Part shown: piece after piece, positions 688 through 33,769 of the stretch
Layout: each line of letters begins with the position of its first letter
Position numbering within the stretch: the first letter of the stretch is position 1
From: a virus
UHGV virus genome: UHGV-0042115
Length of the DNA stretch: 37,114 nucleotides
Reading direction: 5' to 3' (one strand)
The notes under the pieces: generated by a model
Told to the model about the DNA's origin: nothing
Database searches by the model: none
The model's input: only the letters and a program-made list of their open reading frames with translations
Made by a program: the position numbers and the translations under genes

Positions 688-1743
688 TTATGACGGGGTA
701 ATGCCAACCGCTGCCGCCACTTTGTCGCCACTTGGCAGCGTTGCCAGAGGATTGAAACGGAGCGCCGTTTCCAGATGATCCGGTGCCAGATGTGCGTAAC
801 GCATCGTCATTTTTATATCGTGATGTCCGAGAATTTTTTGTAAGGCCAGGATGTTTCCACCCGACATCATGAAGTGCGCCGCAAACGTATGGCGCAGAAC
901 GTGTGTCAGTTGACCGCGAGGGAGCACGATAGACGTTTTTTCCATCACGGATAAAAATTGAAAATAGCAGTCTGTGAAGAAATTGAACCCATCAAGCGCC
1001 ATGATCTCTTCGTAAAGCTCTTTACTGATAGGGATGCTTCTGTTTTTCTTCCCCTTCGTTCTTACAAAGGTAATTCGGTATTTGGTCACCTGTGAGCGGG
1101 TAAGATTTACGGCTTCACGCCAGCGTGCGCCTGTGCTTAAGCATATCTTGACTACCAGTGCCAGAATTGGGTCCTGACGTTTGCAATCAGCCAGTAATTC
1201 AACAATCTGCTCATGGGTAAGCCATGCCATCTCTTTTTCTGCGATGGTGAATTTTCGCATGTTCTCCAGTGGGTTCGGATACGACCATTCGCCCAGGCGG
1301 GATAGTTCGCTAAAAACACTACTTAGATAGCTTTGCTCCAGGTTAATGGTGACCGGGCTTGCTCCTTTCTTCCATTTCTCGCTGAAGTAGATCTCTCCTG
1401 TCAGGCGTTTATCTCGATAGTGGGCAAACATTTTAGATGTGAGATCGGTTGCAAGGGGATTGCCCAGAGCGTCAACCATTAACAGCAGTTTGTCATAGAC
1501 ATGCTGGCCAGCTGTCAGAGATTTACCATGTAGTTTGAACCATAGTTCAACCACGTCTTTCAGTGTTCGACGATCCACTGATTCGCCCAGCTAGGGCTTT
1601 GCTTCGCTTTCTTCCATCGTGTGACGCTCAAAAGCCAGAGCTTCGCCTTTGGTAGCGAATTGTTTACGCACACGACGTCCGCTACGTCCGGCGGGGTAAC
1701 ATTCGCAAAGCCATTTTCCTGTGGTGAGTTTTCGTACTGCCAT
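688..1743 (-). pseudogene. int: Tyrosine integrase (P2/186 family) interrupted by in-frame TAG at codon 51
   Basis: Minus-strand ATG at 1743 gives MAVRKLTTGKWLCECYPAGRSGRRVRKQFATKGEALAFERHTMEESEAKP then TAG (1593..1591), then continues in frame as LGESVDRRTLKDV... to the C-terminal catalytic region (HxxR...Y: LRHTFAAHF...MRYAHLAP). Confidence 0.7.
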
Positions 1744-1767
1744 AAAAAAGCCCTCATATCAGAGGGC
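1744..1767 (-). terminator. Intrinsic-terminator-like hairpin (GCCCTC/GAGGGC stem, 6-nt loop) followed by U6 on the minus strand, ending 1 nt before the int ATG
   Basis: Stem 1750-1755 / 1762-1767; plus-strand A6 at 1744-1749 is U6 on the minus-strand transcript. Confidence 0.45.
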
Positions 1768-1834
1768 TAAATCTAACTGTATGTTTGAACAGTAGTCAAT
1801 GTATGATTTTATTCAATATATACATTGAAGAATA

Positions 1835-2386
1835 TTAAATTCTGTTTTGCAGACCTGATATAAAAATATTATAACTGTGTGAAAGATTTCCAGTGATTCT
1901 AAGGCACTTGCCTATTGCTCTTGATCCAGATACCTTTTGATAAGCGTATTTTGTCAGAGATACCAATTCTTGAGCTGCGTTACCAAGTCGATCAGGGTTA
2001 CGATATTTACTATTATTTTGAGATCGGGAAAGCCGCGGGATTCCTAAAGCTTCCTCGACAGACAATAAATCTCCAAGATACCAGCTTTCAAGCTCATGGC
2101 ATGCAATGCGTATTAAAACATCTGTTTTACCAGCCTTTGAGCAAATATCAGACAGTCTAGATTTAATTGTTGGACCATCTCCGCTATCTTTATCTCTAAT
2201 GACTACAAAAATAGTATCAGGAGTCATCCAGTTTTTTAATTTTTTCTCCAAGTTCTTTTCTAGATCCTGTTTACCTTCAAATACAATATATCGAGTGTCT
2301 GCATCTGCCGGAAGTAATCGAGGCAGTAATCCTTTCAGCATTTCTGCTGCAGATAATTCTTCTAGAAAGAAAGCATAAGTTGTCAT
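1835..2386 (-). CDS. Small Toprim-like protein (DUF4276-like by motif recollection), partner of the upstream ATPase
   Basis: 183 aa; motifs IVFEGKQD and VVIRDKDSGDG resemble Toprim E...DxD; start overlaps the ATPase stop (ATGA); AT-rich. Confidence 0.55.
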   Translation of the reverse strand: MTTYAFFLEELSAAEMLKGLLPRLLPADADTRYIVFEGKQDLEKNLEKKLKNWMTPDTIFVVIRDKDSGDGPTIKSRLSDICSKAGKTDVLIRIACHELESWYLGDLLSVEEALGIPRLSRSQNNSKYRNPDRLGNAAQELVSLTKYAYQKVSGSRAIGKCLRITGNLSHSYNIFISGLQNRI

Positions 2387-3582
2387 TGCGGATCAACTCC
2401 TGGGAAAAATCCTTGTTTCCATAAATATCCCATTTTATCTCCATCATTCATATAGGCTACAAGTTGAGGATCATCTGAAGCCCTGAAAGCACGAGTATAT
2501 CCATTGGTTTTAGTTAACCAGAAAACCTCATCAATATTTACTGCATTCAAGAAGTCTGGGGAATGTGTAGAAACAAATACTTGCCCTCCTCTCTGTGTAT
2601 AGGCTCTGAACTCCTCTGCTAATTCTACTAGCAGTTTTGGATATAGTTGATTTTCCGGCTCTTCGACACATAATAATGGATGAGGCTCAGGATCGTGTAA
2701 TTGTACTAAATATGCAAACATTTTTAATGTTCCATCAGATACATATCTATCGATAAAGGGATCTGCAAAGCTTCCATCTTGAAAACCTAATAATAAACGA
2801 CCATCTTGAGTGCTTATCGGTTTAACATCAGAAACTCCGGGAACTCTATGTTTCATTGAGTCAATAATTTTAGAAAATATTTCAGGATAATTATCGTGGA
2901 TGTTTCGTGCAACTAACTGTAAATTATCGCCAGTTGCAGAAAGATGGTCTTCATATCCAATAGCATCTTTTGATCCCCTAGCTGCATTGATATGAAAGTC
3001 GGAAACATGCCAATTTTCAATTAACTGCCTGAAAGCACTGGCTGCTTTAAATTTACTAAATTGACCTAACCCTTTGATTGCTAAAACATCATCAGAATCA
3101 AGCTGCTGAGTCTCTCTGTTTAGTTCTTCATCTTGTTTACTGAAATCATCTTCATTAACAATCGCAGTACCATGGCCTCTGGAGAAGTCCAAAAAGTGAT
3201 AAGGCGAGCCAAAGGAACCTCTTTTATATCTCAAGATTTCTCTTTCAACATAAACTTTTTTCCTAGAATCTTCTTTAAGTTTTAGAATATAAGTAACTAA
3301 TCGTTCATACCCACTTATTTCAATACGAAATTTTACTTCAATCTCTATTGTCCGGTCGGTAACATCCACTCCACGGCTCAGAAGTTCTTCAAAACCTCCT
3401 CTTTTCTGAACAGCACTTCTCACATTGAAAGTAAGACAATCTTTCAGAAAGCCAAACACATCAAAAAGAGTAGTTTTTCCTACGCCGTTTGCCCCGACAA
3501 TAACACAAAATTTGGGGATATTGTTCATCTCAAGATCTTGGAACGACTTGAAATTTTTTAATTTTATGGCTTCAATTAACAT
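2383..3582 (-). CDS. ABC-type ATPase (OLD/AAA_15/AAA_21-like architecture)
   Basis: 399 aa; N-terminal Walker A GANGVGKTT, C-terminal Walker B LLCVEEPE and STHSP H-loop separated by ~250 aa; ATG 8 nt after the repressor stop with SD-like AGGA in between. Confidence 0.75.
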   Translation of the reverse strand: MLIEAIKLKNFKSFQDLEMNNIPKFCVIVGANGVGKTTLFDVFGFLKDCLTFNVRSAVQKRGGFEELLSRGVDVTDRTIEIEVKFRIEISGYERLVTYILKLKEDSRKKVYVEREILRYKRGSFGSPYHFLDFSRGHGTAIVNEDDFSKQDEELNRETQQLDSDDVLAIKGLGQFSKFKAASAFRQLIENWHVSDFHINAARGSKDAIGYEDHLSATGDNLQLVARNIHDNYPEIFSKIIDSMKHRVPGVSDVKPISTQDGRLLLGFQDGSFADPFIDRYVSDGTLKMFAYLVQLHDPEPHPLLCVEEPENQLYPKLLVELAEEFRAYTQRGGQVFVSTHSPDFLNAVNIDEVFWLTKTNGYTRAFRASDDPQLVAYMNDGDKMGYLWKQGFFPGVDPQ

Positions 3583-3590
3583 AATGTTCC

Positions 3591-4484
3591 TTAATTGCTT
3601 TTATTGATGCTGGAAATGAATAAATAAACTCTAGCTACAAAATTGATATCAGAAAAACCACATTCAAAGCTATTTATGGAGGATGATACTTTTATCACCT
3701 TCTTAGGTAGTCTTGTAATATGCCGAATTGAATAGGTTTCATCGATATTGATGAGCCAGTGTCCATCCAATACATCAGTAATGTTTTGATCACAAATGTA
3801 TGTCATCAACCCGTCTTGAATGACAATTGGTGCTGAAAGATTAGCAGGTAAAAATGACGTATCGAAAATATATGAACCACACTCAACCATTTTTCCTGCA
3901 TTGAGATGAAATTTAGGCAGCTCTTTTACCAATGTTGTGAGAGAACTGTGCTTGCTGCCTTGCCCAGTGGCTAGCCATAAAAGAGAATTTCCTGTTTCCA
4001 ACGAGCATTTTATGATCCAATCAGCTGGGAAAGTGTCTCGTAAATATCTGTTTGCCATGGTGCTTTTAGATACATTCAAATGGTCGGCAAGTTCTTGTCT
4101 TGTTTTGAAGCCATACGCTTTCATTAGCCGGTCTATTGCATCACGTCCGCCTGAATCCAAATTCAGCAAGTTCCCAATAGGGTTCTCTTGATTATTGATT
4201 TGGGGAACATACTGAACCTTTGGTGCAGTTGCCTTTGACATGACCGATGCCTCTGTATTCTGAGGGAATGGTACGCCTTTTCCGAATGAGAGCCATTCGA
4301 TAGATGCACCCGTTTCAATTGCACACTGAATTACCCAGTCAGCAGGAAATACGTCACGCATCCAGCGCGTACCCATAGTGCTTGCAGATACGTTGAACTG
4401 CTCGCATAGAGCTTGCCTTGTCTTGAATCCATACGCCTCAAGCATGCGCGTTATGACTGCTTGTCCTCCGTTTTTGAAATTCAT
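3591..4484 (-). CDS. 186 CI-type immunity repressor with tandemly duplicated N-terminal DNA-binding domain
   Basis: 297 aa; two copies of the ...AYGFKTRQ.L...NVS.STM..R..RD.FPADW.I.C..ETG......WL..G.G module (aa 9-70 and 116-176) then a C-terminal domain; divergent from the apl/cII genes. Confidence 0.7.
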   Translation of the reverse strand: MNFKNGGQAVITRMLEAYGFKTRQALCEQFNVSASTMGTRWMRDVFPADWVIQCAIETGASIEWLSFGKGVPFPQNTEASVMSKATAPKVQYVPQINNQENPIGNLLNLDSGGRDAIDRLMKAYGFKTRQELADHLNVSKSTMANRYLRDTFPADWIIKCSLETGNSLLWLATGQGSKHSSLTTLVKELPKFHLNAGKMVECGSYIFDTSFLPANLSAPIVIQDGLMTYICDQNITDVLDGHWLINIDETYSIRHITRLPKKVIKVSSSINSFECGFSDINFVARVYLFISSINKSN

Positions 4485-6413: not shown

Positions 6414-7267
6414 GCACCATCCTGAAATGGGCGGGTAATAAAACCGCCATTATGTCCGAACTGAAAAAACATCTTCCTGCTGGCCCGCGACTGGTTGAAC
6501 CTTTCGCGGGTTCTTGTGCTGTGATGATGGCGACGGATTACCCCAGCTATCTGGTTGCGGATATTAATCCTGATTTAATCAACCTCTATAAAAAGGTTTC
6601 TGCTGATTGTGAGGCGTTTATATCTCGCGCCAGAGTTTTATTTGAGAACGCAAACAGGGAGGTGGCTTATTACAACATAAAGCAGGAGTTTAATTACTCA
6701 ACTGAAATTACTGATTTCATGAAAGCGGTATATTTCCTGTATCTCAATCGTCACGGTTACCGTGGGTTATGTCGCTATAACAAGAGCGGGCATTTCAACA
6801 TTCCCTACGGTAATTATAAAAATCCGTATTTCCCTGAAAAAGAAATTCGCGCATTTGCAGAGAAAGCCCAGCGAGCAACGTTTATCTGCGCCAGCTTTGA
6901 TGAAACGCTGGCGATGCTGCAGGTGGGGGATGTGGTGTATTGCGATCCGCCTTATGACGGTACGTTTTCCGGTTATCACACTGACGGCTTCACTGAAGAT
7001 GACCAGTATCACCTGGCATCCGTTCTTGAACATCGGTCATCAGAAGGACATCCCGTCATTGTTTCTAACAGTGACACATCCCTGATCCGTTCGCTGTATC
7101 GCAATTTTACTCACCACTACATCAAGGCAAAACGCAGCATCGGTGTGGCAGCTGGTGATAGTAAATCTGCAACAGAAATCATTGCTGTTTCCGGGGCGCG
7201 CTGCTGGGTGGGATTTGATCCTTCGCGTGGCGTAGATAGTTCTGCTGTGTACGAGGTGCGTGTATGA
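6410..7267 (+). CDS. DNA adenine methyltransferase (Dam-like, D12 class)
   Basis: Motifs [53 protein letters not shown]; GGAGG SD before ATG 6410. Confidence 0.88.
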
Positions 7268-9676
7268 GTCATGACGATATGAGCAACTCTAGCGGCTTTA
7301 ACGAGGCCGCTGCATCATTTTCATGGAACGGCCCGAAAAAGGCCATTAACCCTTATCTGGACCCGGCGGAATTTGCGCCGGAGTCTGCACTTTCAAACCT
7401 GATCACTCTGTATGCTGCCGATAACGAGCAGGAACAACTGCGCCGCGAGGCACTGAGTGAGCAGGTCTGGGAGCGTTATTTCTTTAATGAATCCCGTGAT
7501 CCTGTCCAGCGCGAAATGGAGCAGGATAAGCTCATTAGCCGCGCAAAGCTTGCGCATGAGCAGCAGCTTTTTAACCCGGACATGGTCATTCTGGCAGATG
7601 TCAGCGCCCAGCCTACCCACATCAGCAAGCCGCTGATGCAACGTATCGAATACTTCAGCAGCCTGGGCAGGCCAAAGGCTTATTCCCGCTATTTGCGTGA
7701 GACGATTAAGCCATGTCTGGAGCGACTGGATTGTGTACGCGACAGTCAGCTATCCGCTTCTTTCCGTTTTATGGCAAGCCATCAAGGGCTTGAGGGCCTG
7801 CTGATCCTGCCTGAAATGAGTCAGGATCAGGTAAAACGCCTGTCCACCCTGGTAGCTGCGCATATGAGCATGTGCCTTGATGCCGCTTGTGGCGATTTAT
7901 ATGCCACCGATGACGTTAAGCCAGAAGAAATCCGCAAGACATGGGAAAAGGTGGCAGCGGAAACCCTGCGACTGGATGTTATCCCGCCTGCGTTTGAGCA
8001 ACTCCGCCGGAAAAGAAACCGCCGCAAACCCGTGCCCTATGAACTCATACCGGGTTCGCTGGCACGTATGCTTTGCGCCGACTGGTGGTATCGAAAATTG
8101 TGGAAGATGCGTTGCGAATGGCGGGAAGAGCAGTTGCGTGCTGTCTGCCTGGTCAGCAAAAAAGCATCTCCCTATGTCAGCTATGAAGCCGTGACGCATA
8201 AACGTGAGCAGCGCCGTAAGTCGCTGGAGTTTTTCCGTTCTCATGAACTGGTGAACGAAGACGGCGACACGCTGGATATGGAAGATGTGGTAAACGCCAG
8301 CAGCAGCAACCCGGCACATCGCCGCAATGAGATGATGGCCTGTGTTAAAGGTCTGGAGCTTATCGCAGAAATGCGTGGTGACTGCGCCGTTTTCTACACT
8401 ATCACCTGTCCGTCACGTTTCCATTCCACGCTCAACAACGGCAGACCCAACCCGACCTGGACAAATGCGACGGTAAGACAAAGCAGCGATTATCTGGTCG
8501 GCATGTTTGCTGCATTTCGTAAGGCTATGCACAAAGCCGGGTTGCGCTGGTATGGCGTGCGGGTGGCTGAGCCGCACCATGACGGTACTGTGCACTGGCA
8601 TCTCATGTGTTTCATGCGCAAAAAAGACCGCCGCGCCATTACTGCATTGTTGCGTAAGTTTGCCATCCGTGAAGACCGCGAGGAACTGGGTAATAACACT
8701 GGTCCACGCTTTAAATCTGAGCTGATAAACCCACGCAAAGGAACACCGACAAGCTACATCGCGAAATACATCAGTAAGAACATTGACGGGCGTGGTCTGG
8801 CTGGCGAGATCAGCAAGGAAACGGGTAAATCCCTGCGTGATAATGCTGAATACGTTAATGCTTGGGCGTCTCTGCATCGTGTTCAGCAATTCCGCTTCTT
8901 TGGCATTCCGGGGCGTCAGGCTTACCGTGAACTGCGATTGCTGGCTGGTCAGGCGGCAAGGCAACAGGGGACAAAAAGCAGGTGCGCCGGTACTGGATAA
9001 CCCGCGCCTTGATGCCATCCTGGCTGCTGCTGATGCTGGTTGTTTTGCCACCTACATCATGAAGCAGGGCGGCGTACTGGTTCCCCGCAAATATCACCTT
9101 ATCAGAACAGCTTATGAAATTAACGAAGAGCCGACTGCTTATGGCGATCACGGTATTCGTATTTATGGCATCTGGTCACCCATTGTACAGGGCAAGATTT
9201 GCACTCATGCAGTGAAGTGGAAAATGGTTCGTAAGGCCGTTGACGTTCAGGAGGCGGCAGCCGACCAGGGCGCTTGCGCCCCTTGGACTCGTGGCAATAA
9301 CTGTCCCCTTGCTGAAAATTTGAACCAACAAGGGAAAGACAAATCAGCTGATGGGGACTCCAGAACGGATATTACCCGTATGAATGACAAGGAGTTGCAC
9401 GATTACCTGCACAGTATGAGCAAAAAAGAGCGCCGGGAACTGGCTGCAAGGTTACGCCAGGTGAAACCGAAACGGCGTAAAGACTACAAACAGCGAATTA
9501 CGGACCATCAGCGACAGCAGCTCGTCTATGAACTGAAGTCCAGGGGATTTGATGGCAGCGAGAAAGAAGTCGATTTGCTCCTTCGCGGCGGCAGTATTCC
9601 GTCAGGAGCAGGCCTGCGTATCTTCTATCGGAACCAGCGTCTGAAGGAAGATGATAAGTGGCGGAACCTGTATTAA
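7264..9676 (+). pseudogene. A: Replication initiator gpA-like (rolling-circle endonuclease), reading frame changes near 8963-8990
   Basis: First 578 codons end at TAA 8998-9000; the remaining ~230 codons continue in the +1 frame (…[17 protein letters not shown]…) to 9676; junction lies in a G4/A5 homopolymer region. Confidence 0.7.
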
Positions 9677-9768
9677 TTACGCGGGTTAACAATTCGTGCT
9701 CTTAATAATACCAGGCATATCAGGCCGATGAACGTAAAAAAACGTTTTACATCAGTAAGATTATTATA

Positions 9769-9788
9769 TACTGTAAATATAAACAGTG
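9769..9788. promoter_or_regulatory. LexA (SOS) box TACTGTAAATATAAACAGTG
   Basis: Perfect CTGT-N8-ACAG dyad; a degenerate overlapping second site GTG-N10-CAG at 9786-9801. Confidence 0.6.
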
Positions 9789-9828
9789 GTTATGTATACA
9801 GTATTGTTTTGGTGTCATAGGAGGAAAG

Positions 9829-9885
9829 ATGCAGGACTATTTTTTGGAGTCTTTGAAGCTCCAGCGCATTGATTTTTTTTCTTAA
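9829..9885 (+). CDS. 18-codon ORF (MQDYFLESLKLQRIDFFS) with strong SD, directly downstream of the LexA box; possibly the 5' part of a split tum-like gene
   Basis: AGGAGG at 9819-9824; ends inside a T8 run; the next frame continues as a 50-codon ORF to 10018. Confidence 0.25.
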   Translation: MQDYFLESLKLQRIDFFS

Positions 9886-10028
9886 GCTTGTAGCGGCTAG
9901 TGAGTGTAGTGATGAAGAGAAGGGGCTGGCTCTGCAGTGGGTTTCTGAATTGACTGATGAACTCATGGCAAAAATCAGAAGCCACGAATACAACCGCTCA
10001 ATGGATGTCATCAGCTGAGGTGACTTTT

Positions 10029-10262
10029 ATGCGCATTGAAATAATGATCGATAAAGAGCAGAAGATTAGCCAGTCTACCCTGGACGCACTTGAATCCGAG
10101 CTTTACCGCAATCTGCGCCCCCTGTATCCCAAAACGGTAATTCGCATTCGCAAAGGTAGCTCTAACGGTGTGGAACTAACCGGACTGCAACTGGATGAAG
10201 AAAGAAAACAAGTGATGAAAATTATGCAGAAGGTGTGGGAGGACGACAGCTGGCTGCATTAA
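10029..10262 (+). CDS. DinI-family protein
   Basis: 77 aa MRIEIMIDKEQ...LDALESELYRNLRPLYPKTVIRIRKGSSNGVELTG...MQKVWEDDSW resembles E. coli DinI; GAGG SD; track ORF starts earlier at 9957. Confidence 0.75.
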   Translation: MRIEIMIDKEQKISQSTLDALESELYRNLRPLYPKTVIRIRKGSSNGVELTGLQLDEERKQVMKIMQKVWEDDSWLH

Positions 10263-10270
10263 GAAATGTT

Positions 10271-10300
10271 GCCCCCAGGAGGATTCATTCTGATGGGGGC
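10271..10300. terminator. GC-rich hairpin (GCCCCCA / TGGGGGC, 16-nt loop) between convergent dinI-like and the acidic-protein gene
   Basis: 7-bp perfect stem; loop is long and the T-tract weak, so terminator function is uncertain. Confidence 0.3.
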
Positions 10301-10454
10301 TAGTTTGGGCAATGAGTGAAATAAGGCGTAAGGTGGGCGGTTATTTTGATAAGTGATCGTCCGCTTTGTGTCAGAAGCAGAAGTGGGAGTGTCTGAGACT
10401 CTCTAAAAGTTGATGATTCACTTACAAAACCATTTTCCTGATGGATGCTTACAC

Positions 10455-10790
10455 TTACGAATGATCATTCTGTTTAGTCTTCATGAGAAAATCCCGAATC
10501 TTTGCCAAGTTTGAATTTTCGGGGATTGAATCCATGTACGGATCACGCTCAAACACTAATTGCTCAGATTCAACGAAAGCCTGCCACTCTAATGGGTCTA
10601 GCTCAAATCCCATTGCTGTCATATCACTTTCATCTTCCCCCTCGATCCAGTGGACTAAATAAAACAATTCATCATCAGGAGAATCATCCTCACCATCAAC
10701 AATATCAACATCGGTTACAGTGATACGTAGGGTGGGATCGATTTTTGAGACATAAATTCCTAACTGTGGTATAGGGGGAATATTGTTCAT
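10455..10790 (-). CDS. Highly acidic 111-aa hypothetical protein
   Basis: Strong SD (AGGAG, 5-nt spacer) before the minus-strand ATG at 10790; ~25% D/E, few basic residues; no recognisable motif. Confidence 0.6.
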   Translation of the reverse strand: MNNIPPIPQLGIYVSKIDPTLRITVTDVDIVDGEDDSPDDELFYLVHWIEGEDESDMTAMGFELDPLEWQAFVESEQLVFERDPYMDSIPENSNLAKIRDFLMKTKQNDHS

Positions 10791-11038
10791 GGAAACTCCT
10801 TTTATTGGTGTTTGCTATTTGAATAAAAATACGCCAAACAGAGTGTTAACTGTGAATATGGAAAGAATCGTTGTAAGTACCCCGCTTAGGTGTCCCATTC
10901 TATTTTAGAGGTTCTCGTGCATATGGATTATGTTATCTGAAAGTTAACTTCCGCTTCCCGTTCACAGCGAACATTCATCTTTGTAAACCCGTATGATCCG
11001 TTTTTCAAGTGGCCATTCAGATACGGATTTTCACTTCC

Positions 11039-11068
11039 TTGACAGTGCATGACTATGCTGCATGAAAT
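11039..11068 (+). promoter_or_regulatory. Promoter-like element (TTGACA, 18-nt spacer, TGAAAT)
   Basis: Consensus -35 with moderate -10, in the long non-coding region upstream of the PRTase gene. Confidence 0.2.
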
Positions 11069-11102
11069 CGCATGATCGATTGAGGATCGTCTTTGCTCAG
11101 AT

Positions 11103-11124
11103 CCGCCAGAACTGGCGGGCTTTT
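11103..11124 (+). terminator. Intrinsic-terminator-like hairpin (CCGCCA GAAC TGGCGG) followed by GCTTTTG
   Basis: 6-bp GC-rich stem, 4-nt loop, 4-U tract on the plus strand. Confidence 0.35.
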
Positions 11125-11318
11125 GCTCATGTCATGCATGTGCATGAAAACCACTGCATAAAGCGGGCAGGCGTGGCGGGGATACGAGCGCGCGCTAACT
11201 CTTGGCTTTGTTTCATAATCAAAAATGTGATCATTGAGATTATTCTTAAATTTGTGTTTGTCTATGAAATATCATTTCGCTTAACATTGTTTGAGTTAGG
11301 ACTACATGAGAATAAAGA

Positions 11319-11894
11319 ATGCTTTTACCCGTAAGTATTACATCGTGTGGCTTGTATCACCCCTACTGGCATTTGGGAGAGCGCAACCCTCATAGCGATG
11401 AACTATCAAGGCAGATGATGGATTTTAAGGATGAAAATAATCGTAATCATCAAAGGGCCATTAACCGTTTTTCTCGATTAGCTATAGATAAGGTTGGGCG
11501 GTTAGTAATCAGAGGTGGCGGTGGGCGTTTTGTTGAGTCTCCTTTTTCGATAGCAGTTGTCCCGTCTCACACTGAAGGCAGAATTTCACCGGCTTTGATT
11601 GAGGTCGCCGAGCGAATCGTAAATGTTCACCGTCGGGGCATTGTTGATTGCTGTTTGGAAAGAACACGCACTGTTCCTAGCGCACATCGTGAAGGTGGAG
11701 ATCGCTCAATTACTGGTCACATGTCTAGTATCAGAGTTAGGGGTGGTAACCTCATGGGGCGAAATGTGTTACTACTAGATGATGTTAAAACAACAGGCGG
11801 TAGTTTGTCTGCGTGTTTTTATTTACTGGAGTCTGCAGGAGCTGGAGTTATAATGCCATTAGCTCTGCTAGAAACTGCAAACTATGAGGAGTAG
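11319..11894 (+). CDS. Phosphoribosyltransferase (PRTase)-domain protein, ComF-like; candidate toxin/effector
   Basis: 191 aa; C-terminal PRPP-binding motif NVLLLDDVKTTGGSL; ATG directly after an in-frame stop. Confidence 0.7.
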   Translation: MLLPVSITSCGLYHPYWHLGERNPHSDELSRQMMDFKDENNRNHQRAINRFSRLAIDKVGRLVIRGGGGRFVESPFSIAVVPSHTEGRISPALIEVAERIVNVHRRGIVDCCLERTRTVPSAHREGGDRSITGHMSSIRVRGGNLMGRNVLLLDDVKTTGGSLSACFYLLESAGAGVIMPLALLETANYEE

Positions 11895-11898
11895 CAAA

Positions 11899-12858
11899 GT
11901 GCACTCAGAAGAATTAAAAAATACACTTGGATTAGCTATTCAAATCGGGAAGCTAGCATCTGATCAAAGTGTATTAAAATTCTTTGAGCTTATCGATTTT
12001 GATGTTATTCGTGATATACGCGACTTAACTGAGATGGTTAATAGCCACGGGTTTCTAAAAGATAAAATATCTGAGACTGATTTTCTAATAGCGAACGCTG
12101 AATTGGAGAACCACCATGTTAATGGTGTGGAGCTAATACCATATGGGTCTGAATTCTATCCTCTTAGTTTAGCTTTTACTCCTAATCCACCATCAATTCT
12201 CTACATAAAAGGGGATAAAAGTATACTCAAAGAATTGCCGGGTGTCGCAATTGTAGGATCCCGTGATACCTCCCCTGCAGGGGAAGAAATAACGAGGCGG
12301 ATCACTAATCAGATAGTGTCTGCTGGGTATATTGTTGTAAGTGGGTTAGCAATAGGCACTGATGCGAATGCTCACAAGGCAACGTTACAGGCAAAAGGAA
12401 AAACCATTGCTGTCTTGGCGCATGGTCTTGAGGAGGCTAAGCCGAAGCAAAACAGTCGACTTGCTCAAGAGATTCTGGATAAAGGTGGTGCATGGATTTC
12501 TGAGTATCCTATGGGTCGGCCGGCCCAGAAACAATCATTTGTACAAAGAAATCGGATACAAGTTGGATTATCTGCAGGTTCAATTTTAATCGAGGCTGCG
12601 TTAAATAGCGGAACGATAACTCAAGCTGAGTTTGCAAATAAGGCGAAAAGACCAGTGTTTGCGGTTGTACCTCACCTACCTAATAATCCGCTTAATCTTA
12701 ATTGTGAGGGAACAGTTGATTTAGTTAAGAGCAACATGGCTAGAGCGCTAAAAACAAAACGGGATTATGATGATGTGATTATGATCATAAATGAGTCCCG
12801 GGAGTATTTGTTAGAGCTAAAATGGCCAGGGAAACAGAGTACATTAGACTTGATTTAA
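11899..12858 (+). CDS. DprA/Smf-like (Rossmann-fold DNA-processing) protein; alternative ATG start at 11884
   Basis: VAIVGSRDTSPAGEEI...VVSGLAIGTDANAH...TIAVLAHGL...YP...FVQRNRIQVGLS...LIEAALNSGT...PVFAVV matches the DprA core; AGGAG SD 7 nt before GTG 11899, just after the PRTase stop. Confidence 0.8.
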   Translation: MHSEELKNTLGLAIQIGKLASDQSVLKFFELIDFDVIRDIRDLTEMVNSHGFLKDKISETDFLIANAELENHHVNGVELIPYGSEFYPLSLAFTPNPPSILYIKGDKSILKELPGVAIVGSRDTSPAGEEITRRITNQIVSAGYIVVSGLAIGTDANAHKATLQAKGKTIAVLAHGLEEAKPKQNSRLAQEILDKGGAWISEYPMGRPAQKQSFVQRNRIQVGLSAGSILIEAALNSGTITQAEFANKAKRPVFAVVPHLPNNPLNLNCEGTVDLVKSNMARALKTKRDYDDVIMIINESREYLLELKWPGKQSTLDLI

Positions 12859-24120: not shown

Positions 24121-25868
24121 GCACAAAATTTTATACCCTGCTGACGGATATTGGCGCGGCGAAACTTGCCAGCGCCGCCGCGCTCGGTGTGCCGTTAAAA
24201 ATTACCCATATGGCGGTCGGCGATGGCGGCGGAACATTACCAACGCCGGACGCAAAGCAGACAGCACTGGTAAATGAGAAACGCCGGGCTGCGCTGAATA
24301 TGCTCTATATCGACCCGCAGAACAGCAGCCAGATTATTGCTGAACAGGTGATCCCTGAAAACGAGGGCGGTTGGTGGATACGTGAAGTGGGCCTGTTTGA
24401 TGAGTCCGGGGCATTGATTGCCGTGGGCAACTGCCCGGAAAGCTATAAGCCGCAACTGGCTGAAGGCAGCGGGCGTACCCAGACCGTGCGTATGGTGTTG
24501 ATTACCAGCAGCACGGACAATATCACCCTGAAAATCGACCCTGCCGTAGTGCTGGCAACCCGCAAGTATGTGGATGACAAAATATCAGAGCACGAACAGT
24601 CACGACGTCACCCGGACGCCTCGCTGACCGCAAAGGGTTTTACTCAGTTAAGCAGTGCGACCAACAGTGAATCCGAAATACTGGCCGCAACACCGAAGGC
24701 TGTGAAGGCTGCATATGATCTTGCAGCAGGTAAAGCATCCGCCAGTCACACACACCCGTGGAATCAGATAACGGATGTGCCTGCAGCTTCACTGACGGTA
24801 AAAGGCACCGTGCAACTCAGCAGCGCCACTAACAGCACGTCAGAAACGCAGGCTGCCACACCAAAGGCAGTGAAGGCGGCATATGACCTTGCAGCAGGTA
24901 AGGCACCTGTCAGTCACACGCACCCGTGGAGCCAGATAACGGATGTGCCTGCAGCTTCACTGACGGTAAAAGGCACCGTGCAACTCAGCAGCGCCACTAA
25001 CAGCACGTTAGAAACGCAGGCTGCCACACCAAAAGCCGTGAAGGCTGTATATGACCTTGCCAATGGAAAACAACCTGCCGACGCCACACTGACCGCACTG
25101 GCAGGCCTTGCCACTGCGGCAGACAAACTTCCGTATTTTACGGGGAATGATACAGCCAGCCTGACAACCCTGACTAACGTTGGACGGAATATTCTGGATA
25201 AAGCAAGCACACAGGCGGTTATTCAATATCTTGGTCTGAGCGATGCAAGTGGATACGTTGGACGCTGGCTGAATACCCGGGTTTTCACCTCATCAGGTAC
25301 GTACACCCCGACGCCAGGAACAAAACGGATCAGGGTCACAATAACTGGCGGCGGTGGCGGTGGGGGCGGCTGCAAGGCTATATCCAATAATGAAACGTTT
25401 TTCGGTGCTGGCGGTGGGGCCGGTGGAACAATAATTTCAATAATGACCCCGACACAGAATAGTTATCCAGTCACTATCGGCGCAGGTGGGGCCGGTGGTG
25501 TTAGTGCGACGAACGGCACCAGTGGCGGGAATAGCGTATTTGCATCGTTAATTGCTCCTGGTGGCGCAGGTGGCGGGAAAGTGGGAGTTACAAATACAAA
25601 CGGCGGTAACGGAGGTGTGCCGAGTACTGGCGATATCCGCATCACTGGTGGAAATGGAGGCGACGGTCAGTCCGGAAATATCAGCGTCAGCGGTGAAGGC
25701 GGAACATCGTACTGGGGTGGCGGTGGACGCGCAGGCGCTGGCGGTGGCGTTAGCGGTAAGGCATATGGTTCAGGCGGAGGTGGTGCATACGATGCCGGTT
25801 ATAGCGGAACCAGTATGACGGGCGGGAAAGGCGCTGCAGGGATTTGTATTATCGAGGAGTTTGCATAA
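24117..25868 (+). CDS. H: Tail fiber protein H with internal tandem repeats and glycine-rich C-terminal domain
   Basis: Conserved P2 H-like N-terminus (MSTKFYTLLTDIGAAKLA...); repeats and Gly-rich C-terminus described separately. Confidence 0.85.
   Translation: MSTKFYTLLTDIGAAKLASAAALGVPLKITHMAVGDGGGTLPTPDAKQTALVNEKRRAALNMLYIDPQNSSQIIAEQVIPENEGGWWIREVGLFDESGALIAVGNCPESYKPQLAEGSGRTQTVRMVLITSSTDNITLKIDPAVVLATRKYVDDKISEHEQSRRHPDASLTAKGFTQLSSATNSESEILAATPKAVKAAYDLAAGKASASHTHPWNQITDVPAASLTVKGTVQLSSATNSTSETQAATPKAVKAAYDLAAGKAPVSHTHPWSQITDVPAASLTVKGTVQLSSATNSTLETQAATPKAVKAVYDLANGKQPADATLTALAGLATAADKLPYFTGNDTASLTTLTNVGRNILDKASTQAVIQYLGLSDASGYVGRWLNTRVFTSSGTYTPTPGTKRIRVTITGGGGGGGGCKAISNNETFFGAGGGAGGTIISIMTPTQNSYPVTIGAGGAGGVSATNGTSGGNSVFASLIAPGGAGGGKVGVTNTNGGNGGVPSTGDIRITGGNGGDGQSGNISVSGEGGTSYWGGGGRAGAGGGVSGKAYGSGGGGAYDAGYSGTSMTGGKGAAGICIIEEFA
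24617..25075 (+). repeat. Three tandem ~168-bp (56-aa) repeats within the tail fiber gene
   Basis: Unit ...ASLTVKGTVQLSSATNSTSETQAATPKAVKAAYDLAAGKA.VSHTHPW.QITDVPA...; copies 2 and 3 nearly identical at nucleotide level (period 24773 to 24941). Confidence 0.7.
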
Positions 25869-33611: not shown

Positions 33612-33625
33612 AACAAAAAACCCAT
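33612..33625. other. attR core (AACAAAAAACCCAT)
   Basis: Identical to 603-616. Confidence 0.6.
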
Positions 33626-33657
33626 CAACCTTGAACCGAAATGGCGGGGTTGATGGG
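33612..33657 (-). terminator. Probable ybjL intrinsic terminator (10-bp stem CCCATCAACC / GGTTGATGGG, then U6 on the minus strand), overlapping the att core
   Basis: Stem 33621-33630 / 33648-33657, 17-nt loop; A6 at 33615-33620 on plus is U6 on the ybjL transcript. Confidence 0.4.
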
Positions 33658-33769
33658 CTCCACAAAATGGGGACATCAAAGAAAAGCAGTGGCACTAATT
33701 AAGACTGATGCCCTGCGGAAAAGTTCTGCGGTTGTGCAAAAAAATTTCATTTTCAGGGCAACTTCAGTT

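Follow-up and report, generated by a model that had tools for sequence, protein, structure and literature searches.

Our analysis indicates that positions 9769-10262 of the window very probably harbour the SOS-induction tumA-tumB operon of a 186/Fels-2-type (Peduoviridae) E. coli prophage, and that the run of eight T (T8) which breaks the first of its genes is most likely an error of the draft sequence. The window is the whole stretch of DNA that was analysed, 37,114 nucleotides of the virus genome UHGV-0042115. What we observe in it and in its relatives are the elements of such an operon, their conservation, the homologies of its products and the presence of a CI repressor of the 186 type. 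The type of module is already known: it would be another Fels-2/PSP3-type tumA-tumB SOS operon and, if this explanation holds, nothing biologically new is added by it.

An earlier reading of the letters alone (the sequence-only reading) had placed a tum-type module here, at the position equivalent to that in phage 186, and this is borne out by the LexA box, the gene order and the homology to Tum. The same reading took the module to be broken into fragments, or to depend on slippage at the T run for its expression. The comparison with related genomes speaks against both: the relatives have seven T (T7) and an intact ORF of 62 amino acids, and T8 is specific to the draft when it is set against the finished genome of a sister strain.

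The predicted SOS promoter and LexA boxes

The perfect LexA box reported by the sequence-only reading after gene A is present as TACTGTAAATATAAACAGTG at positions 9769-9788 of the plus strand, with the core CTGT-N8-ACAG at 9771-9786. The core pattern is found twice in the window against 0.4 occurrences expected, and two occurrences were reached in 7 of 100 shuffles; taken alone, these chance statistics are weak evidence. The decisive support for the predicted box comes from its conservation across relatives, and the box is convincing because it is conserved, not because the pattern is merely present. We compared 80 related viral contigs, out of the 593 relatives detected in IMG/VR, and an identical box lies 61 nt 5' of the tumA ATG in 76 of them. 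It is kept in the alignment with Fels-2, E. coli phages and a Klebsiella phage, and in eight diverged P2/186-like phages each Tum or TumA homologue has a TACTG-N10-CAGT box 38-67 nt 5' of its start codon. A box occupies the equivalent place in 186, PSP3 and the Yersinia and Cronobacter relatives, and in the record of 186 the corresponding site is labelled a putative LexA site.

The box appears to be part of a promoter. A -35-like hexamer, TTTACA, can be read from the sequence at 9746-9751 of the plus strand, and 17 nt 3' of it the left end of the LexA box provides a putative -10 element, TACTGT (9769-9774, plus strand); together they would form an SOS promoter equivalent to p95 of 186. A consensus scan of positions 9600-10500 called no sigma-70 promoter, the putative -10 matching at 3 of 6 positions, and the -10 TACTGT of 186 p95 likewise stays under the threshold of the promoter scanner. 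In the annotated p95 the TACTGT within the LexA box serves as the -10 element, which is the same layout as the one found here; the two phages share both the overlap of the LexA box with this -10 and the location of the module after gene A. At the level of sequence, the predicted LexA operator overlaps the putative tumA promoter.

A possible additional LexA half-site, CAGTGGTTATGTATACAGTA, is found at 9783-9802 of the plus strand, where the right half, ATACAGTA, is consensus-like and the left half is poor. In the 80 viral contigs its flanks GTGG and ACAG are kept and its middle is variable. The half-site is also seen in Yersinia phage MLG42 and is absent from 186 and PSP3; 186 differs from the window in having a single LexA box and, in addition, an orf97 gene in the operon.

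tumA, tumB and the relation to Tum

The tumA-type gene (9829-10018, plus strand), putatively encoding the antirepressor of a 186-type CI, lies directly 3' of gene A on the same strand, with gene A ending at 9676 and tumA starting at 9829. The order of gene A followed by tum is found also in 186, PSP3, Fels-2 and others. As had been noted from the letters, a strong Shine-Dalgarno sequence precedes an 18-codon ORF: AGGAGGA stands at 9819-9825 (plus strand), is invariant in the phage alignment and is followed by the ATG at 9829. A TAA at 9883-9885 closes the 18 codons (MQDYFLESLKLQRIDFFS); it stands 3 nt beyond the T8 run and not inside the run as had been stated. When one T is deleted, the reading frame continues to a stop codon at 10016-10018 and gives a 62-aa product, exactly the protein that the sequence-only reading had written out. 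The repaired protein is identical to WP_001154431.1 and 97% identical to STM2728 of Fels-2.

The second gene, tumB (10029-10262, plus strand), encodes a 77-aa protein of the DinI family. It matches Pfam DinI (PF06183) over residues 14-76 with E = 6.6e-23 and 81.3 bits against a cut-off of 24.2, and it matches phrog_189, 'RecA filament binding protein DinI', with 1.5e-29. The protein is identical to the DinI-family protein of Fels-2 and shares 78% identity with TumB of PSP3; with the segment 71-145 of 186 Tum the identity is 41% (E = 1e-24), in agreement with the statement of the sequence-only reading that Tum has a DinI-like C-terminal half. The spacer between tumA and tumB is 10 nt, one less than had been counted, and it is invariant in 80/80 viral contigs. 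A terminator-like scan picked up a small hairpin, GTCATC-AGCTGA-GGTGAC, at 10007-10024 of the plus strand; it spans the tumA stop codon and the tumB Shine-Dalgarno sequence (GAGGTG), and its placement suggests translational coupling of the two genes. A GC-rich hairpin predicted by folding after tumB (GCCCCCA...TGGGGGC, 10271-10300, plus strand) is more tentative. Its 7-bp stem is common to the MFE and the centroid structures, with z = -1.15 and a weak U-tract, and it was not called by the terminator scanner; tentatively, it may mark the end of the operon between convergent genes.

The 62-aa protein is homologous to the N-terminal, antirepressor part of Tum, and it is the profile comparisons that show this. 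Against PHROG profiles the protein gives phrog_698 (6e-38), phrog_8554 (1e-8) and phrog_1993, the PSP3 TumA family (2e-3); the N-terminal residues of 186 Tum match the same three, phrog_1993, phrog_8554 and phrog_698 (2.7e-5), over the same region. When an alignment of 35 diverse members of the 62-aa protein family was used as the hhalign query against 186 Tum, residues 5-44 were matched with a probability of 94.9% and E = 4.3e-8. The motif common to the family and 186 Tum is roughly QRI-L--RLV----C---DK-LA--W--EL, and a protein of a Yersinia phage, recorded as 'tum protein', visibly stands between the 62-aa protein and Tum. When the 62-aa protein was compared pairwise with 186 Tum and PSP3 TumA by BLASTP, no meaningful match was obtained, and neither it nor the 49-aa product gave more than sub-threshold noise in a Pfam scan. 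The alignment to 186 Tum that the sequence-only reading had proposed as a check thus yields similarity by profiles and none by pairwise BLAST.

Searches of wider collections place the protein among small stand-alone proteins. A word-indexed protein search returned close relatives only, and an exhaustive profile search returned 84 representative clusters, mostly stand-alone proteins of at most 100 aa. No cluster in the exhaustive search represented a fused Tum (about 145 aa) with the N-terminal match, and no Tum-like fusion was found at library-wide significance. The AF2 model of the 62-aa protein is a two-helix hairpin (pLDDT 88); a sequence search of the PDB and a Foldseek search of this model against the PDB found nothing significant, only generic helical hairpins. 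The literature searched contained no experiments on the 62-aa protein, and a literature search for TumA/TumB gave unrelated papers only.

One could argue that the 62-aa protein is an unrelated small SOS-induced protein which happens to sit in the tum position, and that the induction of the prophage works otherwise. This would agree with the lack of a Pfam family, with the lack of pairwise similarity to 186 Tum and PSP3 TumA and with the lack of a solved or structurally similar protein. It would also agree with how conserved the 62-aa protein is, which one would not expect of a protein that binds one repressor specifically: its identity is 97-100% across phages, while the CIs of these phages reach only 41-63% against the CI of the window. 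However, the profile homology to the N-terminal part of Tum, bridged by the 'tum protein' of the Yersinia phage, speaks against such a protein, as do the same position, the same LexA-box promoter and the co-occurrence of a 186-type CI. Additionally, a stop codon splits the tum region in two in Fels-2 and PSP3, and in PSP3 the antirepressor activity resides in the upstream gene, both according to PMC3121763, which cites Bunny et al. (2002; PMC151935) for them. We consider it very unlikely that the 62-aa protein is something other than an antirepressor of the Tum type.

The T8 tract

The draft contig ADWT01000014.1 (GCA_000179135.1, E. coli MS 124-1, a draft of 2010) matches the window at 100% identity, also in the T8 run. 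The nearest finished genome is that of E. coli MS 85-1 (CP146650), a sister strain of MS 124-1. If a 168-bp tandem repeat of the tail-fibre gene is set aside, the window shows no substitution against MS 85-1 and exactly three indels, and all three are changes in homopolymer length: G5 to G4 and A6 to A5 in gene A, and T7 to T8 in tumA (T8 at 9873-9880, plus strand). They are confined to 900 bp (8967-9880) of about 37 kb. The two changes in the replication gene A (P2 gpA/186 A-type endonuclease; 7264-9676, plus strand) fall in runs at 8967-8970 and 8973-8977, 2 nt apart, and split the gene into ORFs at 7264-9000 and 8783-9676; in MS 85-1 gene A is a single ORF of 804 aa. In a collection of 15 billion proteins, the frameshifted GpA product of 578 aa (EFK68877.1) occurs on no contig but ADWT01000014.1.

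The extra T in tumA is therefore read as an assembly error, because three homopolymer indels accompanied by no substitution resemble miscalled homopolymers and not the divergence of strains; we consider it highly probable from these comparisons that it is a homopolymer-length error of the 2010 draft and not biology. The confidence in this artefact is limited because the reference, MS 85-1, is a sister strain and not MS 124-1 itself. The clustering of the indels fits a local patch of low coverage, and it fits selection against replication and induction functions too. Read literally, the window does not contain the intact ORF expected of a TumA-type antirepressor, since T8 leads to a stop after 18 codons; this failure probably belongs to the assembly and not to the gene.

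The same picture emerges from the relatives. T7 and an intact 189-nt ORF are found in 4/4 aligned phages, namely Fels-2, E. coli phages 813R9 and 500465-1 and one Klebsiella phage. Among the 80 related IMG/VR contigs the tract is T7 in 79, T8 in none, and the full 62-aa ORF is present in all 80. A different prophage in IMG/VR, 94% identical to the window (contig L132), also has T7. The 73-nt segment with T7 has an exact match in 977/1092 complete E. coli records; the corresponding 74-nt segment of the window, with T8, has no exact match among 1097 matching complete E. coli records. About one complete E. coli genome in five carries the module itself (1089/5426). Had the short, split ORFs been the normal form, as the sequence-only reading allowed, the homologues would show them; they show one intact 62-aa ORF instead. 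Outside the draft contig of the window, T8 was found only in two viral contigs, L091 and L092, where gene A and the structural genes are intact and one of which carries a frameshift in tumB as well. Thus either errors arise easily at this tract, or it is a true hot spot of mutation.

The opposite possibility is that T8 is a genuine +1 frameshift in MS 124-1, by which the antirepressor would be dead and the prophage would not be SOS-inducible, in a process of decay or domestication; the module would still be tumA-tumB. The integrase gene has a stop in place of W51 in the draft and in MS 85-1 alike, and because this nonsense codon is present in both assemblies, the prophage of the window is already decaying. 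Gene A is broken in the window too, the two viral contigs with T8 are unrelated and have T8 in tumA between intact neighbours, one of them with the tumB frameshift, and the finished reference comes from the sister strain. Against this, three homopolymer indels and no substitutions in about 37 kb are the signature of miscalling, and by a rough estimate substitutions should exceed such indels many-fold. Two 1-nt deletions 2 nt apart in the essential gene A are hard to accept as independent mutations, the broken GpA is found on one contig only among 15 billion proteins, and the T8 segment of the window is exact in 0/1092 complete E. coli records. A genuine frameshift in MS 124-1 is therefore unlikely.

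An extended form of this thought is that the T7 tract is a recurrently hit mutational switch, that slippage to T8 has independently ended SOS inducibility in the window and in L091 and L092, and that the T8 of the window is real. If it were true, the host would keep the defence cargo of the prophage without being killed after DNA damage. We find such a switch quite unlikely.

A programmed recoding site at the T run would be a different matter: ribosomal frameshifting or transcriptional slippage on T8 would then provide a regulated or low-level supply of TumA. RNA polymerase slippage on long A/T runs can give a minority of transcripts one base shorter. T8 recurs in the two other contigs and, if it is real, some full-length TumA could still arise by slippage. 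However, recoding needs a conserved out-of-frame form, and here the in-frame T7 is the rule and T8 the rare exception; beyond the homopolymer, no stimulatory structure and no conserved slippery heptamer context were found. Since the 62-aa ORF is whole in the relatives, with T7, no recoding is needed, and a programmed site at this run is extremely unlikely. The draft error, which we prefer to all of these, carries a caution of its own: homopolymer frameshifts in older drafts should be checked against finished relatives before pseudogenes or recoding sites are called.

Proposed mechanism and the known systems

Phage 186 provides the experimental frame for the operon. Its Tum protein is a LexA-controlled antirepressor which binds CI and the second half of which resembles DinI (PMC3121763), and 186 is induced through SOS derepression of p95-tum (PMC7708051). 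The mechanism of the Tum antirepressor was established by experiment (Shearwin et al., 1998, as cited in PMC3121763). The window encodes a repressor of the same type, a CI of 297 aa at 3591-4484 of the minus strand with two Phage_CI_repr domains and a Phage_CI_C domain, in which the HTH is duplicated; it is 34% identical to the CI of 186.

The steps that follow, from the binding of LexA to the action of the antirepressor and of the DinI-like protein, are inferred for the window's operon from 186, PSP3 and Fels-2. A promoter whose -10 element overlaps the LexA box would drive tumA (62 aa) and tumB (77 aa). In the undamaged cell LexA would sit on the box and keep the operon off; upon DNA damage, the self-cleavage of LexA stimulated by RecA would free the promoter. 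TumA, a predicted two-helix protein, would then bind the 186-type CI and remove it from its operators, so that lytic development could begin, and the DinI-like TumB may modulate the activity of the RecA filament and thereby the SOS response.

The closest known counterpart is Fels-2, in which STM2728 (62 aa) and STM2726.1 (DinI family) follow a gpA-like gene. The gene order, the sequence of the LexA box and its spacing are the same as in the window, and 10 nt separate the two genes in both. Between Fels-2 and the window, identity is 97% for the 62-aa protein and 100% for the DinI-like one. Fels-2 differs in having T7 and an intact ORF where the window has T8. Its CI is 41% identical to that of the window, which has the duplicated HTH domain, and a gene of the size of orf97 follows its DinI gene, whereas the window has other cargo there. 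In PSP3, two separate genes likewise stand behind a LexA box after gene A, and its record describes tumA as 'UV induction of prophage' and tumB as 'similar to dinI and 3' end of 186 tum'. PSP3 TumA belongs to phrog_1993, in contrast to the window, and the family of the window matches it weakly in hhalign (E = 4e-3, probability 8%); the two genes are 3 nt apart in PSP3 and 10 nt apart in the window. The separation of tumA from the DinI-like gene, half taken for a sign of fragmentation by the sequence-only reading, is therefore the normal Fels-2/PSP3 arrangement (PMC3121763).

In 186, in contrast to the two genes of the window, both parts are fused in one ORF (Tum, 146 aa). The 186 record also lists shorter, nested tum products from internal starts, the shortest of which has a GTG start and bears the name truncated Tum. 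The DinI part is adjacent to the antirepressor gene in PSP3, Fels-2, Yersinia phage MLG42 and the prophage of the window, and it is absent in ESSI-2, ESSI2_ev015 and YenM06.16-2. Because it is fused, adjacent or absent among phages, the LexA box and TumA form the conserved unit and the DinI part is an accessory. A comparable combination exists in the Salmonella lambdoid prophages Gifsy-1 and Gifsy-3, where the LexA-repressed operon dinI-gfoA/gfhA encodes a DinI homologue and a small antirepressor. The Gifsy antirepressors inactivate a non-cleavable repressor by binding to it (PMC3121763). The gene order is reversed there, with dinI first, and the phage type and the repressor family are unrelated to those of the window.

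Several smaller observations concern the rest of the prophage. Its cargo is PARIS-like and DprA/PRTase-like, and an Rfam scan found only RybB, at the right junction of the prophage. A second LexA-type box lies at 1777-1792, in a promoter-like cassette directly 5' of int. This LexA-type int cassette is kept in cases where cargo genes lie between cI and int, and it is absent where cI and int abut.

A LexA-type cassette in front of the integrase gene

The window holds a second perfect CTGT-N8-ACAG sequence, which sits within a promoter-like cassette immediately 5' of the integrase gene int. The cassette (1741-1799, minus strand) consists of a -35-like TTGACT (1794-1799), the LexA-type box (1775-1794, core 1777-1792), a -10-like TAGATT (1769-1774) and a terminator-like hairpin (1749-1768), which is followed by T6 and ends at the int start codon (ATG, 1743-1741). 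The TTGA, the CTG...CAG and the hairpin are kept in the E. coli phage 813R9, in KP12 and in the Klebsiella phage 4LV2017, and 33 IMG/VR contigs carry the cassette as well, downstream of at least six different cargo contexts. A search combining P2-like, LexA box and integrase in a library of papers gave no match.

The cargo that separates cI from int in the window (1835-3582, minus strand) encodes an AAA_21/AAA_15 ATPase of 399 aa and a DUF4276 protein of 183 aa, a pair that we take to resemble the PARIS defence proteins AriA and AriB. It begins 8 nt 3' of cI, and both genes probably share a transcript with cI in the lysogen. In contrast, cI abuts int in Fels-2 and 186, and the cassette upstream of int is absent there. 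The cassette has the appearance of a promoter that places int under SOS control and makes up for the cargo inserted between cI and int.

The integrase gene itself (688-1743, minus strand) carries an in-frame stop at the position of W51 in its relatives. This stop is common to the draft contig, which is identical to the window, and to the finished sister genome of E. coli MS 85-1; the gene is therefore a genuine pseudogene, and excision of the prophage is probably defective.

The CI repressor and the tumA region

The CI repressor (297 aa, 3591-4484, minus strand) contains two tandem Phage_CI_repr HTH domains and a Phage_CI_C domain, whereas 186 CI has only one HTH domain. In phages whose homologue of TumA, the 62-aa inferred antirepressor, is 97-100% identical, the CI proteins are only 41-63% identical to that of the window. 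If TumA is indeed the antirepressor, it must recognise something that has stayed conserved among repressors which are otherwise diverged and presumably heteroimmune.

Immediately 3' of the first LexA box, which lies upstream of tumA, we find the candidate half-site ATACAGTA in an element at 9783-9802 (CAGTGGTTAT..ATACAGTA), the centre of which varies among 80 contigs while its flanks are kept. The half-site is present in the Yersinia phage MLG42 and absent from 186 and PSP3. The element may serve as an auxiliary half-site for LexA or as part of the 5'-UTR.

Homopolymer and repeat differences

The T8 run that breaks tumA also occurs in two IMG/VR prophages that are 95-96% identical to the window, L091 (2860-2892) and L092 (5713-5745). 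Both have intact gene A, portal and terminase genes, as well as capsid genes where these are covered, and the DinI-family gene tumB of L091 is frameshifted by one extra A. Either the T-tract of tumA is a recurrent sequencing error, or the SOS module is really and repeatedly inactivated.

Homopolymer-length differences of the same kind as the T8 run are seen in gene A of the window, which is apparently split into two ORFs (7264-9000 and 8783-9676) because G5 is shortened to G4 and A6 to A5, two bases apart (8967-8977), compared to all close relatives. The base substitutions that distinguish the draft from the finished sister genome all fall inside the 168-bp tandem repeats of the tail-fibre gene (24651-25060), where the finished genome is longer by 336 bases, or two extra units. 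Either the repeat was collapsed in the draft assembly, or its copy number really varies.

Variable cargo and the right end of the prophage

The region from tumB to the portal gene (10455-12858) is variable cargo: it includes a minus-strand 111-aa ORF with DUF8087, an ORF weakly matching phosphoribosyltransferases (11319-11894) and a DprA/SLOG-domain protein (11884-12858), whereas Fels-2 and 186 have an orf97-type gene in its place. The RybB sRNA gene (33612-33690, minus strand; Rfam, 105 bits) is found just past ogr, at the prophage's right end. The prophage is located between rcdA/ybjJ and ybjL, and its integration site apparently adjoins rybB.
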